DNA of 33,074 nucleotides from a virus (Duplodnaviria; Heunggongvirae; Uroviricota; Caudoviricetes), in IMG/VR virus record IMGVR_UViG_2737471830_000002; one strand, 5' to 3'. Both the position numbers and the translations under genes were made by a program. Of this stretch, positions 1,681-33,074 are shown one piece after another. Positions within the stretch are counted from its first letter, which is position 1. Each line of letters begins with the position of its first letter. Under the pieces are notes generated by a model that was not told the origin of the DNA, did no database searches, and saw only the letters and a list, made by a program, of their open reading frames with translations.

Positions 1681-3678
1681 CTATTCTGACAACGCATCAG
1701 ACTTAGCCCCCTGCGTCAGAGCGTTAATTGCCTTTTGTGCCTGCTGCATTGCTTTCTCAAAGGCTGTTGATCCGCGTGGGGTGTTTGCCATTCGGAGCAT
1801 TGCATTTCTGAATGGTTCGCTCTCATAGGCGCGAGTAAGAAGTCCGTAGCTTACTGCTGCGCCAGTTGTCGCCGGGTTCATTGCCGTCCCATACCCGATA
1901 ATGAACGGGATGGTTTGCTGCCCTGTTGGTGTTGTTACTGCCGCTTTTGCTGCCTGCTGAGTGGACTGAAGGTAATTTTTCAAACCTTTCAGATAAGCAG
2001 CGTCCTGCCCCTTAAATGTGATGCCAGTCTGGCTTTGCAGGATGTTAAGCTGTCGAAGGAACTGGTCAGGGGATCCACCTGATTTCTCCATCGCCTTTCC
2101 AATGATGCCATTGCGCATTTGCGCCCTGCCAACACGACCAACTGAGTTATACAGCGTCTTAATTTCCGATTTGTTCTTGCTGAATAGCATGTTATTGACA
2201 ACTTCCGGCGTCAGATCGCCTTTCATGAGAACATTCTTCAGCCTGGTATTCTTTAGTTTCGCCGCTTCGTCAGCGTAGACGGCATTGGCCTGCTGATATT
2301 TACGGAGAGTATCGTTGCCAAGATTCTGACCAATGGCACCATTGATATCGTCGGTCATTGCCTTGTAAACGCGCTGAATGGCAGCATCGGAACGGTTTGG
2401 TAACACTGGTCGCTCCCCCTTCACGTCCATTCTGAACTGGCTGCGCAGATCGCTTAATTGCTTCAAATCCAGATTTACCGGACCATCAGGACCAGCATTG
2501 CGAACAAGCTCATCACGATAGGACTGAAGTTTTGAAATAGTCTCGTTATCAGCAACCTTACCAAGCTTCTGCAGGTTAGGTATTTCTGTATCAATCTGCT
2601 GAATTGCTCTTGCAGGCTGAATGTTTATTCCCGCCATAGCATTCTGAACCTGCTCCAGTCGATTTCCTGCAGCGCGACGAATTCCTGATGTTTTCGCTTT
2701 AAGGCTGTCAATAACAACCGCTGGATCATACTCACCGAATTTATCAGCAAATCTCTGAACCAACTGGCTTCTCGCTTCCTGTTGCGTTGCTCTCATTCCG
2801 CTTGTGCCAGCCAGGGGGATATTTTCTGCTGTCGTTTGCGCCATTTTTCCGACGCGGGAAGTAGGCTGTAACAGGTCTGTGGTGTGCAGAGGCACTCCTT
2901 CACGCTCTGCAAATCTGATAGTTTGCTGCGCTTCTGGTGCTATCGAACCACGAACACCACGATAAGCAGCACCTAATCCACGTCCGGCAGCGTTAATAGC
3001 ACCGCCAGCCAGCACACCAACGCCTAAATCGGTGGCGAGTGCTTCCGCATCATCTTTCGCACTGTTTGCAGCAAGTGATCCAACTGCGTTTTCTGCGAGA
3101 AGGCGAGTTGCCCCCTGAGCAATTCGACCAGCAAGTGTTGGTGCCTGTGTTGCCGCTCTCTCAACGCCAGCAGGAGTGAGGTAAGGCAATGCTTCAGCAA
3201 ATACCCTTCCCTCTGTCGTTTGTGGAGTCAGCGCGCCTTGCTGAAGGCCAAAGTCCTGCTCTAATCCCTGCGTTGTTACTCGTGGCGCTGGTTGATATGT
3301 ACCATCGCCAATGCCGAGTTTACCGCCAGCCCAAGCCGCCGCGCTTGTTACAGCATCTGCAACTGATGCAGGTATGTTTGCCACGTTCACGCCAGCCTGC
3401 ACCAGTCCGCGACCAGTCTCTTTCACTGCTTCACCAAGATCAGACATAAATCCACTTTGCTGTGGTTGTTGCTGTGCTACTGGTTGCTGTGTATCCACTG
3501 GCTGCACAGATGGCAATGGATAGGCAGCATAGAAAGCTTGCTTAGCCTGCTCTGCATTTTCTCCGGCTTGCGGGGCCACGACTTCATTGAAGTATTGCTC
3601 CTGAGCCTGCGCTTTTTGTTCTGGTGCTAACGCCTGATACTGTGGAGAGGCGATAACATCTTTCCATGCTTTAGCCAT
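1681..3678 (-). CDS. Ejection (injection) protein, P22 gp16 position
   Basis: 665-aa ORF, low-complexity Q/A-rich, last gene of the ejection-protein block by synteny with P22 (16-20-7-14-26-10-4). Confidence 0.6.
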   Translation of the reverse strand: MAKAWKDVIASPQYQALAPEQKAQAQEQYFNEVVAPQAGENAEQAKQAFYAAYPLPSVQPVDTQQPVAQQQPQQSGFMSDLGEAVKETGRGLVQAGVNVANIPASVADAVTSAAAWAGGKLGIGDGTYQPAPRVTTQGLEQDFGLQQGALTPQTTEGRVFAEALPYLTPAGVERAATQAPTLAGRIAQGATRLLAENAVGSLAANSAKDDAEALATDLGVGVLAGGAINAAGRGLGAAYRGVRGSIAPEAQQTIRFAEREGVPLHTTDLLQPTSRVGKMAQTTAENIPLAGTSGMRATQQEARSQLVQRFADKFGEYDPAVVIDSLKAKTSGIRRAAGNRLEQVQNAMAGINIQPARAIQQIDTEIPNLQKLGKVADNETISKLQSYRDELVRNAGPDGPVNLDLKQLSDLRSQFRMDVKGERPVLPNRSDAAIQRVYKAMTDDINGAIGQNLGNDTLRKYQQANAVYADEAAKLKNTRLKNVLMKGDLTPEVVNNMLFSKNKSEIKTLYNSVGRVGRAQMRNGIIGKAMEKSGGSPDQFLRQLNILQSQTGITFKGQDAAYLKGLKNYLQSTQQAAKAAVTTPTGQQTIPFIIGYGTAMNPATTGAAVSYGLLTRAYESEPFRNAMLRMANTPRGSTAFEKAMQQAQKAINALTQGAKSDALSE

Positions 3679-25042: not shown

Positions 25043-25112
25043 AGAATACTACAGGTATTCAAAGCAATCAATACTCAGGGTATTTTTAGTTTAAGTACCT
25101 TAGCTATTAGAA
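25043..25112. promoter_or_regulatory. OR operators with divergent pR and pRM
   Basis: AATACTACAGGTATT (25045..25059) and AATACTCAGGGTATT (25070..25084); minus-strand pR -35 TTGATT and -10 TATTCT overlap them; plus-strand TAGAAT (25107..25112) lies 7 nt before the cI ATG, implying a leaderless cI mRNA. Confidence 0.6.
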
Positions 25113-25119
25113 TTAAGCT

Positions 25120-25836
25120 ATGGAAAATAAAAAATCACTGACGACAGAACAGCTCGAAGACGCTAAGCGGCTTAAGGCTTTGTATGAGTCAAAAAAGAAA
25201 GAATTGGGAATAACCCAATACTCAATTGCTGATGAACTGGGTATCACCCAAGGAGCGGTAGGGCATTATCTTAATGGCAGAAACGCGCTAAACGTTGAGG
25301 TTGCATCTGGTTTTGCACGATTGTTGCAAGTCTCAATTGCTGATTTTAGCCAGTCAATTGCTGCCAAGGTTGCAGAACAGGCAGAAAGCCTTAAGAGCGA
25401 TGCCAACGTAAGGTATGCAGGGGAATACAGAGCAGGAAAGAGGTATCCGGTGTTAAGCAGTATCCAGGCTGGCTCGTGGTGTGAAGCATGCGAACCATAC
25501 ACCATTAAAGACATAGATGTTTGGCTTGAGTCTGACGCGCATATTCAAGGTAATGCGTTCTGGCTTAAAGTGGAAGGTGATTCAATGACGGCACCGGTTG
25601 GGTTAAGCATTCCAGAGGGAACATTCGTTCTTTTCGATACCGGAAGGGAGGCGATCAACGGCAGCTTGGTCATAGCAAAACTTTCTGACTCTAACGAAGC
25701 AACATTCAAGAAGCTGATAATCGACGGCGGAAATAAATACCTCAAGGGACTTAATCCTGCATGGCCTCTCGTGCCAATCAATGGAAACTGCAAGATTATA
25801 GGCGTTGCAATTGAGACAAAACTAAGGCTGGTTTGA
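25120..25836 (+). CDS. cI: CI repressor (HTH N-domain plus S24 LexA-like autopeptidase C-domain)
   Basis: 238 aa; LTTEQLEDAKRLKALYESKKKELGITQ...AFWLKVEGDSMTAP...FKKLI parallels lambda CI including the cleavage-domain motifs. Confidence 0.9.
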   Translation: MENKKSLTTEQLEDAKRLKALYESKKKELGITQYSIADELGITQGAVGHYLNGRNALNVEVASGFARLLQVSIADFSQSIAAKVAEQAESLKSDANVRYAGEYRAGKRYPVLSSIQAGSWCEACEPYTIKDIDVWLESDAHIQGNAFWLKVEGDSMTAPVGLSIPEGTFVLFDTGREAINGSLVIAKLSDSNEATFKKLIIDGGNKYLKGLNPAWPLVPINGNCKIIGVAIETKLRLV

Positions 25837-25853
25837 TCACGCAAGGGGCGATT

Positions 25854-26222
25854 ATGGTTGGAACCGCTATAGCAAGCTTTTTTGGGATGTTGGCAATCTC
25901 GACAATTTACGGCTTAGCGCATGCTTTTATTGCGAAATCTCTATCAGAAAAAATAAGCCAGGCTTGGGCGCATAGATCAGCTCGTTTCATGATTCTGGTG
26001 ATCATAGCAATACAAGGGATATCTGCATTTATCCTCTATGGTTCAAGCTTATACCTGTTGTATCAAGGCGCGACATTTACGCCTTACACCAGTGATTACG
26101 GAACGCTATACGATGGTAGTGAAGACATCTCTATGGCTTGGATCGTCTTTGGTTTATCTATGGCCGTGTCTGTTGTAGCAGACATCATTAAGGTAATTCT
26201 CGTCTTAACCTTCGCTGACTAA
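25854..26222 (+). CDS. Small integral membrane protein co-transcribed with cI; candidate superinfection-exclusion/abortive-infection factor
   Basis: 122 aa from ATG at 25854 (AAGGGG RBS), 18 nt after the cI stop; three or four predicted TM segments; no similarity recognised. Confidence 0.55.
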   Translation: MVGTAIASFFGMLAISTIYGLAHAFIAKSLSEKISQAWAHRSARFMILVIIAIQGISAFILYGSSLYLLYQGATFTPYTSDYGTLYDGSEDISMAWIVFGLSMAVSVVADIIKVILVLTFAD

Positions 26223-26309
26223 CCCATAATCCCGGCAGCAATAGCTATCGGGATCCACTTCACATATCCCGCATAAAAAAACACTGAACAAGAAGACACC
26301 GAAAAAATA

Positions 26310-26396
26310 AATATCCTTTGTATTCATTTGCTTATCATTATTTCACCAAAAATAAATACCTTGGGTATTTACACAATAGAATACCTACAGTATTCT
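26310..26396 (+). promoter_or_regulatory. OL operators and pL
   Basis: AATATCCTTTGTATT (26310..26324), AATACCTTGGGTATT (26355..26369), AATACCTACAGTATT (26380..26394); -35 TTTACA (26368..26373), 17-bp spacer, -10 TATTCT (26391..26396). Confidence 0.6.
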
Positions 26397-26590: not shown

Positions 26591-26896
26591 ATGACAGTAG
26601 TCATTACTTATCTGGCTGACGATAACGCCAGAAATCGCCGCAGAGCACGCAGACAGGCTCAACGTGAACAGGCAATGCAAGAACAGCGATTGGCACGAAA
26701 AATTGCGCTAAAGCTCTCTGGTTGCGTCAGAGCAGATAAAGCAGCATCACTCGGAAGCCTTCGCTGCAAGAAGGCAGAAGAAGTCGAGAGTAAACAGAAC
26801 CATATTTACTACCGCAAGCCACGCAGTGAAATGGGTGTGACCTGTTCAGGCCGCCAGAAGCAACGCGGAAAATCAATTCCAGCTTATTACGATTGA
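26591..26896 (+). CDS. N: N-type transcription antiterminator
   Basis: Arginine-rich motif NARNRRRARRQAQREQ at the N-terminus; C-terminus ...KPRSEMGVTCSGRQKQRGKSIP parallels lambda N; GGAGG RBS. Confidence 0.8.
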   Translation: MTVVITYLADDNARNRRRARRQAQREQAMQEQRLARKIALKLSGCVRADKAASLGSLRCKKAEEVESKQNHIYYRKPRSEMGVTCSGRQKQRGKSIPAYYD

Positions 26897-26904
26897 GGTG
26901 AGAT

Positions 26905-27156
26905 ATGGAATTTCATGAAAGTGCGATTTGTGATTTTCGCGCTAACGCAAATTCAGTAAAACCACAGCCAATTGCAGTTCTTTTTAAAACAATGGGTGCG
27001 TGGGCTGTTTTATGCTTCGCCGCTGACGACACTGACGCAAGAATGGCAATAGGCCAAGAGATGGAGATGGACCCGACAAACGATGAATTCATAATTTATG
27101 GCGCTCCATCTAATTACTTACTTGATACCTGCAACATTTACAACAAGGCTGCCTGA
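26905..27156 (+). CDS. Hypothetical protein (83 aa) at the ral-equivalent position
   Basis: ORF directly after N with GAGGTGAG RBS; followed by an intrinsic terminator. Confidence 0.45.
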   Translation: MEFHESAICDFRANANSVKPQPIAVLFKTMGAWAVLCFAADDTDARMAIGQEMEMDPTNDEFIIYGAPSNYLLDTCNIYNKAA

Positions 27157-27175
27157 TGGTGGCCTTTATTTTTGG
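27145..27175 (+). terminator. Intrinsic terminator (tL1-like)
   Basis: AAGGCUGCC-UGAU-GGUGGCCUU stem-loop followed by UAUUUUUGG. Confidence 0.5.
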
Positions 27176-27202
27176 CATAAACAACAGAATAAACACTGCA
27201 CT

Positions 27203-27230
27203 GTGTATTCATTCCAACGAGTGAATACAC
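27203..27230. repeat. Perfect 9-bp inverted repeat GTGTATTCA-N10-TGAATACAC
   Basis: Read directly; lies between two intrinsic terminators in an intergenic region. Confidence 0.6.
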
Positions 27231-27292
27231 GGAGCAATGTCGCTCGTAACTAAACAGGAGCCGACTTGTTCTGATTATTGGAAATCTTCTTT

Positions 27293-27320
27293 GCCCTCTA
27301 ATGTGAGGGCGATTTTTTAT
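27293..27320 (+). terminator. Intrinsic terminator
   Basis: GCCCTC-TAATGT-GAGGGC followed by GATTTTTTAT. Confidence 0.6.
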
Positions 27321-27338
27321 CTGTGAGGATATGAACAG

Positions 27339-27707
27339 ATGTCAAACATCAAAAAATACATCATTGATTACGACTGGAAAGCATCAATAGAAATTGAAAT
27401 CGACCATGACGTAATGACAGAGGAAAAACTTCACCAGATTAATAATTTCTGGTCAGACTCTGAATACCGACTCAATAAACACGGCTCTGTATTAAATGCT
27501 GTATTAATCATGCTGGCACAACATGCTCTGCTTATAACAATTTCAAAAGACCTAAATGCATATGGTGTTGTTTGTGAGTTCGACTGGGATGATGGAAATG
27601 GTCAGGAAGGATGGCCTCCAATGGATGGTAGTGAAGGAATAAGAATTACCGATATCGACACATCTGGAATATTTGATTCAGATGATATGACTATCAAAGC
27701 CGCCTGA
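27339..27707 (+). CDS. Hypothetical acidic protein (122 aa), candidate anti-defence factor
   Basis: ORF with GAGGA RBS, bracketed upstream by two terminators; Asp/Glu-rich (for example DWDDGNGQEGW, ITDIDTSGIFDSDDM); no recognised family. Confidence 0.55.
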   Translation: MSNIKKYIIDYDWKASIEIEIDHDVMTEEKLHQINNFWSDSEYRLNKHGSVLNAVLIMLAQHALLITISKDLNAYGVVCEFDWDDGNGQEGWPPMDGSEGIRITDIDTSGIFDSDDMTIKAA

Positions 27708-27782
27708 GCGCGGCTTTACCGCATACCAATAATGCTTCACGAGAGGCATTTTCATTATGCAATCAAATATAAGGAGTTACCC

Positions 27783-31826: not shown

Positions 31827-33074
31827 CTATATTGCTGAAGGTACAGGCGTTTCCATCACTATTTGCTCGCGTTTTTTACTCAGGAAGAAAATGCCAAATA
31901 GCAACATCATGCAGACAATACCCGAAATTGCGAAGAAAACTGTCTGGTAGCCTGCGTGGTCAAAGAGTATCCCAGTCGGCGTTGAAAGCAGCACAATCCC
32001 AAGCGAACTGGCAATTTGAAAACCAATCAGAAAGATCGTCGACGACAGGCGCTTATCAAAGTTTGCCACGCTGTATTTGAAGACGGATATGACACAAAGT
32101 GGAACCTCAATGGCATGTAACAGCTTCACTAATGAAATAATCCAGGGGTTAACGAACAGCGCGCAGGAAAGGATACGCAACGCCATAATCACAACACCGA
32201 TAAGTAATGCATTTTTTGGCCCTACCCGATTCACAAAGAACGGAATAATCGCCATGCACAGCGCTTCGAGTACCACCTGGAATGAGTTGAGATAACCATA
32301 CAGGCGCGTTCCTACATCGTGTGATTCGAATAAACCTGCATAAAAGACAGGAAAAAGTTGTTGATCAAAAATGTTATAGAAAGACCACGTCCCAACAATA
32401 AATATGACGAAAACCCAGAAGTTTCGATCCTTGAAAACTGCGATAAAATCCTCTTTTTTTACCCCTCCCGCATCCGCCGCTACGCACTGGTGATCCTTAT
32501 CTTTAAAACACATGTTGATCATCATAAATACAGCGCCAAATAGCGAGACCAACCAGAAGTTGATATGGGGACTGATACTAAAAAATATGCCGGCAAAGAA
32601 CGCGCCAATAGCATAGCCAAAAGATCCCCAGGCGCGCGCTGTTCCATATTCGAAATGAAAATTTCGCGCCATTTTTTCGGTGAAGCTGTCAAGCAAACCG
32701 CATCCCGCCAGATACCCCAGGCCAAAAAAGAGCGCCCCCAGAATTAGACCTACAGAAAAATTGCTTTGCAGTAACGGTTCATAAACGTAAATCATAAACG
32801 GTCCGGTCAAGACCAGGATAAAACTCATACACCAGATGAGCGGTTTCTTCAGACCGAGTTTATCCTGAACGATGCCGTAGAACATCATAAATAGAATGCT
32901 GGTAAACTGGTTGACCGAATAAAGTGTACCTAATTCCGTCCCTGTCAACCCTAGATGTCCTTTCAGCCAAATAGCGTATAACGACCACCACAGCGACCAG
33001 GAAATAAAAAAGAGAAATGAGTAACTGGATGCAAAACGATAGTACGCATTTCTGAATGGAATATTCAGTGCCAT
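31827..33074 (-). CDS. cscB: LacY-family oligosaccharide:H+ symporter, probably sucrose permease CscB
   Basis: 415 aa, 12-TM MFS; aligns along its length with LacY; the start codon is the last three bases of the window. Confidence 0.8.
   Translation of the reverse strand: MALNIPFRNAYYRFASSYSFLFFISWSLWWSLYAIWLKGHLGLTGTELGTLYSVNQFTSILFMMFYGIVQDKLGLKKPLIWCMSFILVLTGPFMIYVYEPLLQSNFSVGLILGALFFGLGYLAGCGLLDSFTEKMARNFHFEYGTARAWGSFGYAIGAFFAGIFFSISPHINFWLVSLFGAVFMMINMCFKDKDHQCVAADAGGVKKEDFIAVFKDRNFWVFVIFIVGTWSFYNIFDQQLFPVFYAGLFESHDVGTRLYGYLNSFQVVLEALCMAIIPFFVNRVGPKNALLIGVVIMALRILSCALFVNPWIISLVKLLHAIEVPLCVISVFKYSVANFDKRLSSTIFLIGFQIASSLGIVLLSTPTGILFDHAGYQTVFFAISGIVCMMLLFGIFFLSKKREQIVMETPVPSAI

Follow-up and report, generated by a model that had tools for sequence, protein, structure and literature searches.

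The open reading frame at 25854-26222 of the window (by which we mean the entire 33,074-nt stretch of DNA analysed here) is hkaS, a real and already annotated gene of coliphage HK620 (AF335538, protein AAK28867) that was deposited in 2001 with the product "unknown", and it lies in a locus of a well-known type. The gene encodes a protein of 122 aa that is predicted to cross the inner membrane three times, and from its arrangement behind the repressor gene cI we infer that it closes the repressor operon as the second of two genes. By analogy with other genes at this position, HkaS may be an accessory protein of the lysogen, whose most likely job would be the exclusion of heterotypic phages at the inner membrane. 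We place the probability of this reading at about 0.45, the defence role of hkaS being argued from position and analogy only.

A 1.7-kb region of the window is 98.6% identical to the DNA of phage HK620, and the encoded protein shares 97.5% identity with HK620 HkaS. Moreover, it matches the PHROG 6534 family (function listed as unknown) over its full length, with an E-value of 2.9e-79 and residues 1-122 aligned to a 122-position profile. The initial annotation had recognised no similarity for this protein, a view that these matches overturn; the remote homology search that it had proposed recovered PHROG 6534 and HK620, and no relatives beyond the HkaS family. Specifically, a word-indexed search of 5.8 billion proteins returned 12 clusters, all of them inside the HkaS family, and a profile search of 1.84 billion representative proteins yielded one representative and one fragment only. 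HkaS had no match in NCBIfam or among plasmids, no fold relative in PDB or BFVD, and no matching family in PADLOC-DB 2.0.0 at E <= 10. A hit to Pfam Cation_ATPase_C (E 0.0011, 19 bits) fell under the 27.3-bit cut-off and was put down to the composition of transmembrane (TM) helices.

The gene is also present in phages HK630, HK140, mEpX2, HF4s, HZ41, phi296, phi367 and 611R6 and in two Stx2c-converting phages, with 92-99% protein identity, and its carriers differ in virion type (P22-like phages, lambda-like siphoviruses and Stx2c phages). Among 5426 complete E. coli genomes, 146 (~2.7%) carry hkaS, at 147 places and always under the name "hypothetical protein"; the HK620-type cI is likewise found in 146 genomes, at 147 places. 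At least 1000 E. coli and Salmonella contigs encode exactly this HkaS protein sequence, and more distant homologues (50-83% identity) were found in prophages of Salmonella, Enterobacter, Hafnia and Buttiauxella, as well as in metagenomes. The family is tiny and confined to Enterobacterales. In the window, in HK620, and in the loci of the Salmonella, Hafnia, Buttiauxella and metagenomic homologues, the gene directly follows an HK620-type cI and precedes OL/pL and N. A literature search for hkaS together with HK620 found no paper, an unrestricted search for "hkas" returned only unrelated papers, and papers on mEpX2, SieA and gene co-transfer do not discuss hkaS.

The region around cI and hkaS is a lambdoid immunity region, whose features are as follows:

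25044..25109, no strand: OR1-OR3 operators with the divergent promoters pR and pRM; 17-bp palindromes of type GAATACnnnnnGTATTC, with coordinates transferred from HK620 and read in the sequence
25108-25113: candidate pRM -10 sequence TAGAAT, 7 nt 5' of the cI ATG
25120..25836, plus strand: cI repressor of the HK620 immunity type, 238 aa (HTH_3 and Peptidase_S24; 99.6% identity to HK620 cI), first gene of the lysogenic (pRM/pRE) transcription unit
25834-25836, plus strand: cI stop codon TGA
25837..25853, plus strand: cI-hkaS spacer of 17 nt, holding the Shine-Dalgarno sequence AAGGGG (25843-25848) 5 nt 5' of the ATG
25854..26222, plus strand: hkaS, 122 aa, ATG start, predicted three-TM inner-membrane protein
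26229..26254, plus strand: stem-loop (minimum-free-energy fold) about 7 nt past the hkaS stop, lacking a U-run
26309..26325, no strand: operator-like palindrome AAATATCCTTTGTATTC at the right edge of the cargo slot; part of tIMM in the HK620 record
26354..26396, plus strand: OL2 (26354-26370) and OL1 (26379-26395), after the HK620 annotation
26368-26396, plus strand: pL, a sigma-70 promoter (TTTACA-17-TATTCT) found by promoter scan and directed away from hkaS
26591..26896, plus strand: N antiterminator (PHROG 271, E 2.6e-35; HK620 annotation), first gene of the early-left operon, which bounds the immunity region

On the far side of cI, the minus strand carries cro, cII, O and a gene for a DnaB-type helicase, and the complete window represents a P22-like phage or prophage, nearest to HZ41 and IME10. 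In HK620, the neighbours of hkaS are cI and then the terminator tIMM, OL1-3, pL, nutL and N; cI, OL/pL and N are identical neighbours in the window. The initial annotation was right that hkaS starts on the same strand 18 nt past the cI stop, the two being separated by the 17-nt spacer, and that it occupies the site of lambda rexA/rexB, between the cI stop and OL/pL and N. Rfam and tRNA scans of the window returned no matches.

The operator-like palindrome at 26309-26325 is kept in the loci of the Salmonella, Hafnia and metagenomic homologues (L002, L006 and L008). The equivalent of the OL3 of the HK620 record, 26332-26348 (ttatcattatttcacca), is a poor palindrome, and the one at 26309-26325 is far better; judging from the sequence, the HK620 record may have the third operator in the wrong place. 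Right past hkaS, the hexamers ATCCCG (26231-36), CGGGAT (26251-56) and ATCCCG (26268-73) could form two mutually exclusive hairpins, and they are followed by an A-run, not a U-run. At the edge of the window, a 415-aa open reading frame on the minus strand (31827-33074), assigned to PHROG 17800 (unknown function) and having no PADLOC match, opposes the early-left operon. Reverse-oriented genes near this operon are often independently expressed morons.

A scan of the cI-hkaS junction detected no promoter-like and no terminator-like site, and every homologue has a gap of 17-20 nt with a Shine-Dalgarno sequence between the two genes. In all five sequence types folded by minimum free energy (5/5), a stable hairpin stands 8-25 nt past the hkaS stop, its sequence differing from type to type; that of the Buttiauxella locus has a U-run and so the form of a canonical terminator. 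The stem-loop at 26229-26254 is thus probably the 3' end, or a stabiliser, of the cI-hkaS transcript. Since no promoter-like or terminator-like site splits cI from hkaS, the gap is 17-20 nt throughout, a hairpin lies at the 3' side and pL is directed away, hkaS would be the last gene of the repressor operon. The position of the pRM -10 sequence would yield a leaderless cI mRNA, as in lambda. From this gene arrangement, and by analogy, hkaS would be made in the lysogen from pRM and during establishment of lysogeny from pRE, and would not be expressed in lytic growth. For comparison, transcription of bstA starts at the cI promoter in 17 conditions (PMC7067206), and co-transcription of hex with the repressor was shown by RT-PCR (PMC3564112).

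We give next to no weight to the reading that the frame at 25854-26222 arose by chance or is a remnant in decay, the true feature being the untranslated 3' end of the cI transcript. It would fit the lack of a known domain and of homologues beyond a very small family. However, the homologues keep a length of 121-122 aa and invariant motifs across seven sequence types, down to 50% identity, four types other than that of the window show 50-83% identity, and hkaS is under purifying selection, with a dN/dS of 0.14-0.22 (Nei-Gojobori). Its dS equals that of cI (0.69 vs 0.74 for the window-Hafnia pair). Furthermore, the gene is intact in all 80 sampled IMG/VR loci of the E. coli type, which comprise 33 DNA alleles and 18 protein alleles and hold no nonsense or frameshift mutation. 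The Shine-Dalgarno sequence AAGGGG(G) is kept, with a spacer of 17-19 nt, in 79 IMG/VR loci, and the divergent homologues have AAGGA in the cI-hkaS spacer. Finally, AlphaFold2 returned a confident model of the protein (pLDDT 89.6 and pTM 0.76, from an alignment of eight sequences only). Sequence conservation thus effectively refutes the chance-frame explanation.

Other frames in the vicinity were rejected. A 129-aa reading of hkaS from a TTG start (25833) is not conserved, an in-frame TAA lying directly 5' of the ATG in L002. A 40-aa hydrophobic frame on the minus strand, 26205..26327 (MNTKDIYFFGVFLFSVFLCGICE...), has its ATG within the operator-like site and closes after 3-10 codons in L006 and L002. 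This frame is convergent with hkaS, overlaps its end and looks like a small toxin; it was judged spurious.

Kyte-Doolittle hydropathy places hydrophobic stretches of HkaS at residues ~3-27, 45-70 and 94-121, and the AlphaFold2 model contains helices at 2-38 (with a kink at residue 30), 41-73 and 89-121, together with a small beta-hairpin at 78-86. The initial annotation had foreseen a 122-aa protein with three or four TM segments; the length and the three segments are borne out, and neither the hydropathy profile nor the model contains a fourth. In all seven sequence types, loop 1 (28-44) has a net charge of +3 to +5 and loop 2 (73-93) of -1 to -4. By the positive-inside rule, the N terminus and loop 2 are predicted to be periplasmic, and loop 1 and the C terminus cytoplasmic. 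The topology prediction suggested earlier for this protein therefore gives three TM segments, with the N terminus out and the C terminus in. Loop 2 is acidic and aromatic and includes the beta-hairpin, and the C-terminal tail is hydrophobic, with a net charge of -1.

The best-kept blocks of the protein are K-I-S/T-Q-A-W-x-H-R-x-A-R-F (33-45) and, at the C terminus, D110-x-x-K113-x-I-L-V-L-T-F-A-D. Within these, D110 and K113 in TM3 and the terminal ILVLTFAD are invariant, as is Q54. Variation is greatest in the inner half of TM1, in the outer half of TM2 and in the periplasmic loop. An arms-race asymmetry between the periplasm-proximal and cytoplasm-proximal halves was not significant (mean column identity 0.54 vs 0.61, p = 0.22).

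Compared with known systems, hkaS has in common with lambda rexA/rexB the position between the cI stop and OL and the same expected expression from pRM. RexB is a small polytopic inner-membrane protein with four TM segments. It differs from HkaS in length (144 vs 122 aa, the latter with three TM segments), and no sequence relation was found between them: hhalign gave a probability of 0.6%, and HkaS matched no RexB family in Pfam or PADLOC. Moreover, hkaS has no RexA-like partner, being the single open reading frame between cI and OL, and tblastn with RexA and RexB against the window returned no match. Class I holins cross the membrane three times, with the N terminus out and the C terminus in, and their C-terminal tail is typically charged. 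HkaS resembles those of this class (lambda S, P22 gp13) in its topology as predicted from hydropathy and loop charges. However, the holin genes lie in the late lysis cassette beside the endolysin, whereas hkaS lies in the immunity region and encodes a hydrophobic tail, and no homology was found (hhalign probability of 0.3% against the P22 holin gp13').

These comparisons bear on the possibility, which we consider improbable, that HkaS is a stand-alone, membrane-permeabilising effector of abortive infection. It would be a RexB- or holin-like channel, closed in the lysogen and opened by the membrane disturbance that an infecting phage causes (e.g. holin insertion or injection-associated depolarisation), and the cell would die before phage release. 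The slot is that of RexA and RexB, RexA itself following a 76%-identical cI in one related locus (L012); the predicted topology is that of class I holins; and the invariant D110, K113 and Q54, inside hydrophobic helices, would suit oligomerisation or the polar lining of a pore. On the other hand, hhalign probabilities stay below 1% against both lambda RexB and the P22 holin, no RexA-like sensor gene accompanies the one open reading frame of the slot, and the tail is hydrophobic, with a net charge of -1 and none of the charged character of holin tails. Additionally, HkaS would be translated from a good Shine-Dalgarno sequence in a constitutively active repressor operon, which argues that it is not very toxic.

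The exclusion reading has a parallel in P22 SieA, a superinfection exclusion protein that blocks DNA injection (PMC10883804). SieA and HkaS are both small prophage products of the inner membrane that stand alone, and three TM helices are predicted in each (for SieA, PMC10883804). SieA differs in having 162-164 aa, its own promoter and a gene that adjoins the ejection-protein genes, whereas hkaS is in the cI operon. The cytoplasmic SieA motif FxRYPxEAxxFNK (PMC10883804) is absent from HkaS, and hhalign gave a probability of 0.3% for the pair. BstA of BTP1, Stk of 933W and Hex of 434 are, like HkaS, products of single accessory genes that follow cI and use the repressor promoter (PMC8585504, PMC7067206, PMC3564112), but they are unrelated in sequence to HkaS, which is a predicted integral membrane protein, and the Hex homologues seem to carry a signal peptide. 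None of sieA, sieB and rexAB was found in the window, and the interval after N (26897-27730) holds no sieB/hkaP-like gene; hkaS is therefore the only candidate exclusion gene seen in the window. The interval 1258-1680, flanked by gene 16 (1681-3678) and the tailspike gene (1-1257), contains no sieA, only a homologue of Mnt (1298-1591; 49% identity to P22 Mnt).

The slot downstream of cI was surveyed in 80 loci that encode relatives of the window's cI (40-76% identity), with one genome per species. The HkaS HMM matched a single one of them (L036, from an uncultured Buttiauxella), the other 79 carrying other cargo. In L036, cI ends at 3154 and hkaS (3175-3540) is followed by the canonical terminator; its repressor combines an unrelated N-terminal HTH domain (18% identity) with an HK620-type C-terminal domain (83% identity). 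Read from its sequence, this locus appears as the product of recombination between the repressor domains, with the C-terminal domain and the cargo kept together. The cargo of the other loci includes the following:

L012 (Siccibacter): RexA, following a 76%-identical cI
L015 and L050: BstA, in the slot after cI relatives
Slot after cI relatives: PDC-M63A/DUF6932; PDC-M03A (HipA-like)
Slot after cI relatives: capP/M78 peptidase; RmrA/SocA-Panacea protein; NYN protein
L064:3109-3513, L065:3133-3537 and L073:3109-3513: homologues of 434 Hex, 135 aa
L016 3220-3372 and L048 3189-3347: peptides of ~50 aa with one or two TM segments
L081 2991-3356: a 122-aa three-TM protein with a zinc ribbon
L014 3332-4111: a DUF1275 membrane protein, five TM segments by a crude hydropathy count

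Among the 43 cargo open reading frames of at least 95 aa, at least 12 match known or candidate defence families of PADLOC at E <= 1e-5, namely RexA, BstA (twice), PDC-S42 (twice), PDC-M63A (twice), PDC-M03A, PDC-M53A, PDC-S43, capP and RmrA, the PDC families being candidates only; ~70% of the slot cargo is without a defence-family match. This supports the expectation that other phages carry exclusion genes at this position. The remaining cargo includes many unknowns. The membrane proteins of L016, L048, L081 and L014 are mutually unrelated, and small membrane proteins are a recurrent type of cargo in the slot. Repressors whose C-terminal domain is 81-85% identical to that of the window are accompanied by hkaS in L002 and L036 and by different cargo in L011-L013 and L028. 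Moreover, the similarity between related cI loci reaches the last residues of cI and ends at the stop codon, and in P22 the slot is empty, with 39 bp between c2 and OL. Related repressors with swapped or absent cargo, and homology that ends at the cI stop, thus define an exchangeable cargo site, which is rich in anti-phage genes. The interval between cI and N is known as a mosaic accessory site that houses rexAB, bstA, stk and hex, genes that each use the promoter of the repressor (PMC8585504, PMC7067206, PMC3564112), and its use for anti-phage cargo has already been described in a passage of PMC8585504 that cites Degnan 2007.

The Hex homologues of L064, L065 and L073 are 51% identical to the published "sHex" fragment (E 4e-19) and start with what is, by eye, a typical signal peptide (...AASA|QCWVVSNLHGYGAM). 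The published fragment starts at E43 (ECWIVTNLHGYGAM), which coincides exactly with the signal-peptidase site predicted here. Export of Hex is therefore probable, and a direct action of the protein on RecA-mediated repressor cleavage (PMC3564112) would not sit easily with it.

HkaS changes faster than the repressor beside it. Between sequence types, dN is 4-5 times higher in hkaS than in cI (0.094 vs 0.022, 0.33 vs 0.083 and 0.41 vs 0.074). Within the E. coli type, codons with synonymous-only polymorphism make up 13% of the codons of hkaS and cI alike, whereas nonsynonymous polymorphic codons are six times commoner in hkaS (15/122) than in cI (5/238); the ratio of nonsynonymous to synonymous-only codons is 15/16 in hkaS vs 5/30 in cI (Fisher p = 0.003). 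The changes in HkaS within this type are all conservative. The fast change of the protein fits diversifying pressure and looser constraint on TM helices equally.

A role other than defence, the chief rival reading though one that we regard as somewhat unlikely, would make HkaS a lysogen-expressed membrane protein acting in induction or repressor stability, envelope physiology, transport, stress tolerance or lysogenic conversion, the last being the province of lambda genes such as bor and lom. The equal counts of hkaS and cI among E. coli genomes (146 genomes and 147 places each) fit such a role, as does the fact that hkaS stays with the C-terminal domain of cI in L036 though the N-terminal DNA-binding domain has been swapped. 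It would also agree with the predicted cytoplasm-facing orientation of the best-kept blocks (the loop 1 motif and ILVLTFAD) and with the lack of any defence-family match for HkaS. Furthermore, position and expression logic are those of 434 hex, the deletion of which is reported to raise spontaneous induction 30-fold (PMC3564112). However, cI proteins with an equally similar C-terminal domain (81-85%) work with other cargo or none, which argues that cI is independent of HkaS, and the identifiable cargo of the slot is mostly defence-related. Three TM segments joined by loops of ~20 residues would, moreover, offer little surface to a cytoplasmic repressor or to RecA.

Returning to exclusion at the inner membrane as the preferred reading, hkaS would belong to the HK620-type immunity module as an accessory ("moron") gene and would share its transcripts with cI, which start at pRM in the lysogen and at pRE when lysogeny is established. 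HkaS would be translated from its own Shine-Dalgarno sequence and inserted in the inner membrane as a three-helix bundle, presenting the N terminus and the acidic, aromatic beta-hairpin loop to the periplasm and the conserved basic loop and C-terminal tail to the cytoplasm. There, protection of the lysogen against heteroimmune phages would be its most likely task. P22 SieA, HK97 gp15 and T4 Imm act via DNA entry or membrane-inserted phage proteins, and HkaS may interfere with either in the same manner. We favour interference at the level of the membrane over a sensor-triggered abortive system because HkaS is almost devoid of a soluble domain and has no partner gene. More tentatively, HkaS may found a new stand-alone family of three-TM anti-phage proteins which, with no sensor or partner and expressed from the repressor promoter, would act against heteroimmune phages by jamming the DNA-entry conduit or by opening as a channel upon membrane disturbance.

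The defence-rich slot, the fast change of the protein, as in arms-race genes, and a window in which sieA, sieB and rexAB were not found speak for exclusion. Against it, HkaS has no PADLOC, Pfam or NCBIfam match and no relation to RexB, SieA or class I holins, ~70% of the cargo in the slot lacks a defence match, and the faster change could reflect the laxity of TM helices. In addition, 434 hex is reported to stabilise lysogeny and not only to exclude phages (PMC3564112), and hkaS, being carried with the immunity module across virion types, would not be tuned to one injection machinery. On balance, HkaS is a reasonable exclusion candidate and an unsurprising one.

The interval between the repressor gene and pL is among the most strongly expressed sites of lambdoid prophages, and it has yielded RexAB, BstA, Stk and Hex. 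In spite of its presence in ~2.7% of complete E. coli genomes and in Stx2c-converting phages, hkaS has remained "hypothetical" for 25 years. When the slot after a single cI family is scanned, known defence genes turn up at a high rate, and the remaining cargo of this slot is therefore a ready list of candidates. Should HkaS prove active against phages, it would represent a new family among the accessory genes of the repressor operon, themselves a known kind. As an exclusion factor, it would be a very small membrane protein that is easy to manipulate, joining the few such factors that consist of a single gene, with relevance to phage therapy and to the typing of E. coli lysogens. If it does not exclude phages, HkaS would still be a conserved membrane protein of lysogens, where its expression is predicted, with a possible role in host physiology or prophage stability.
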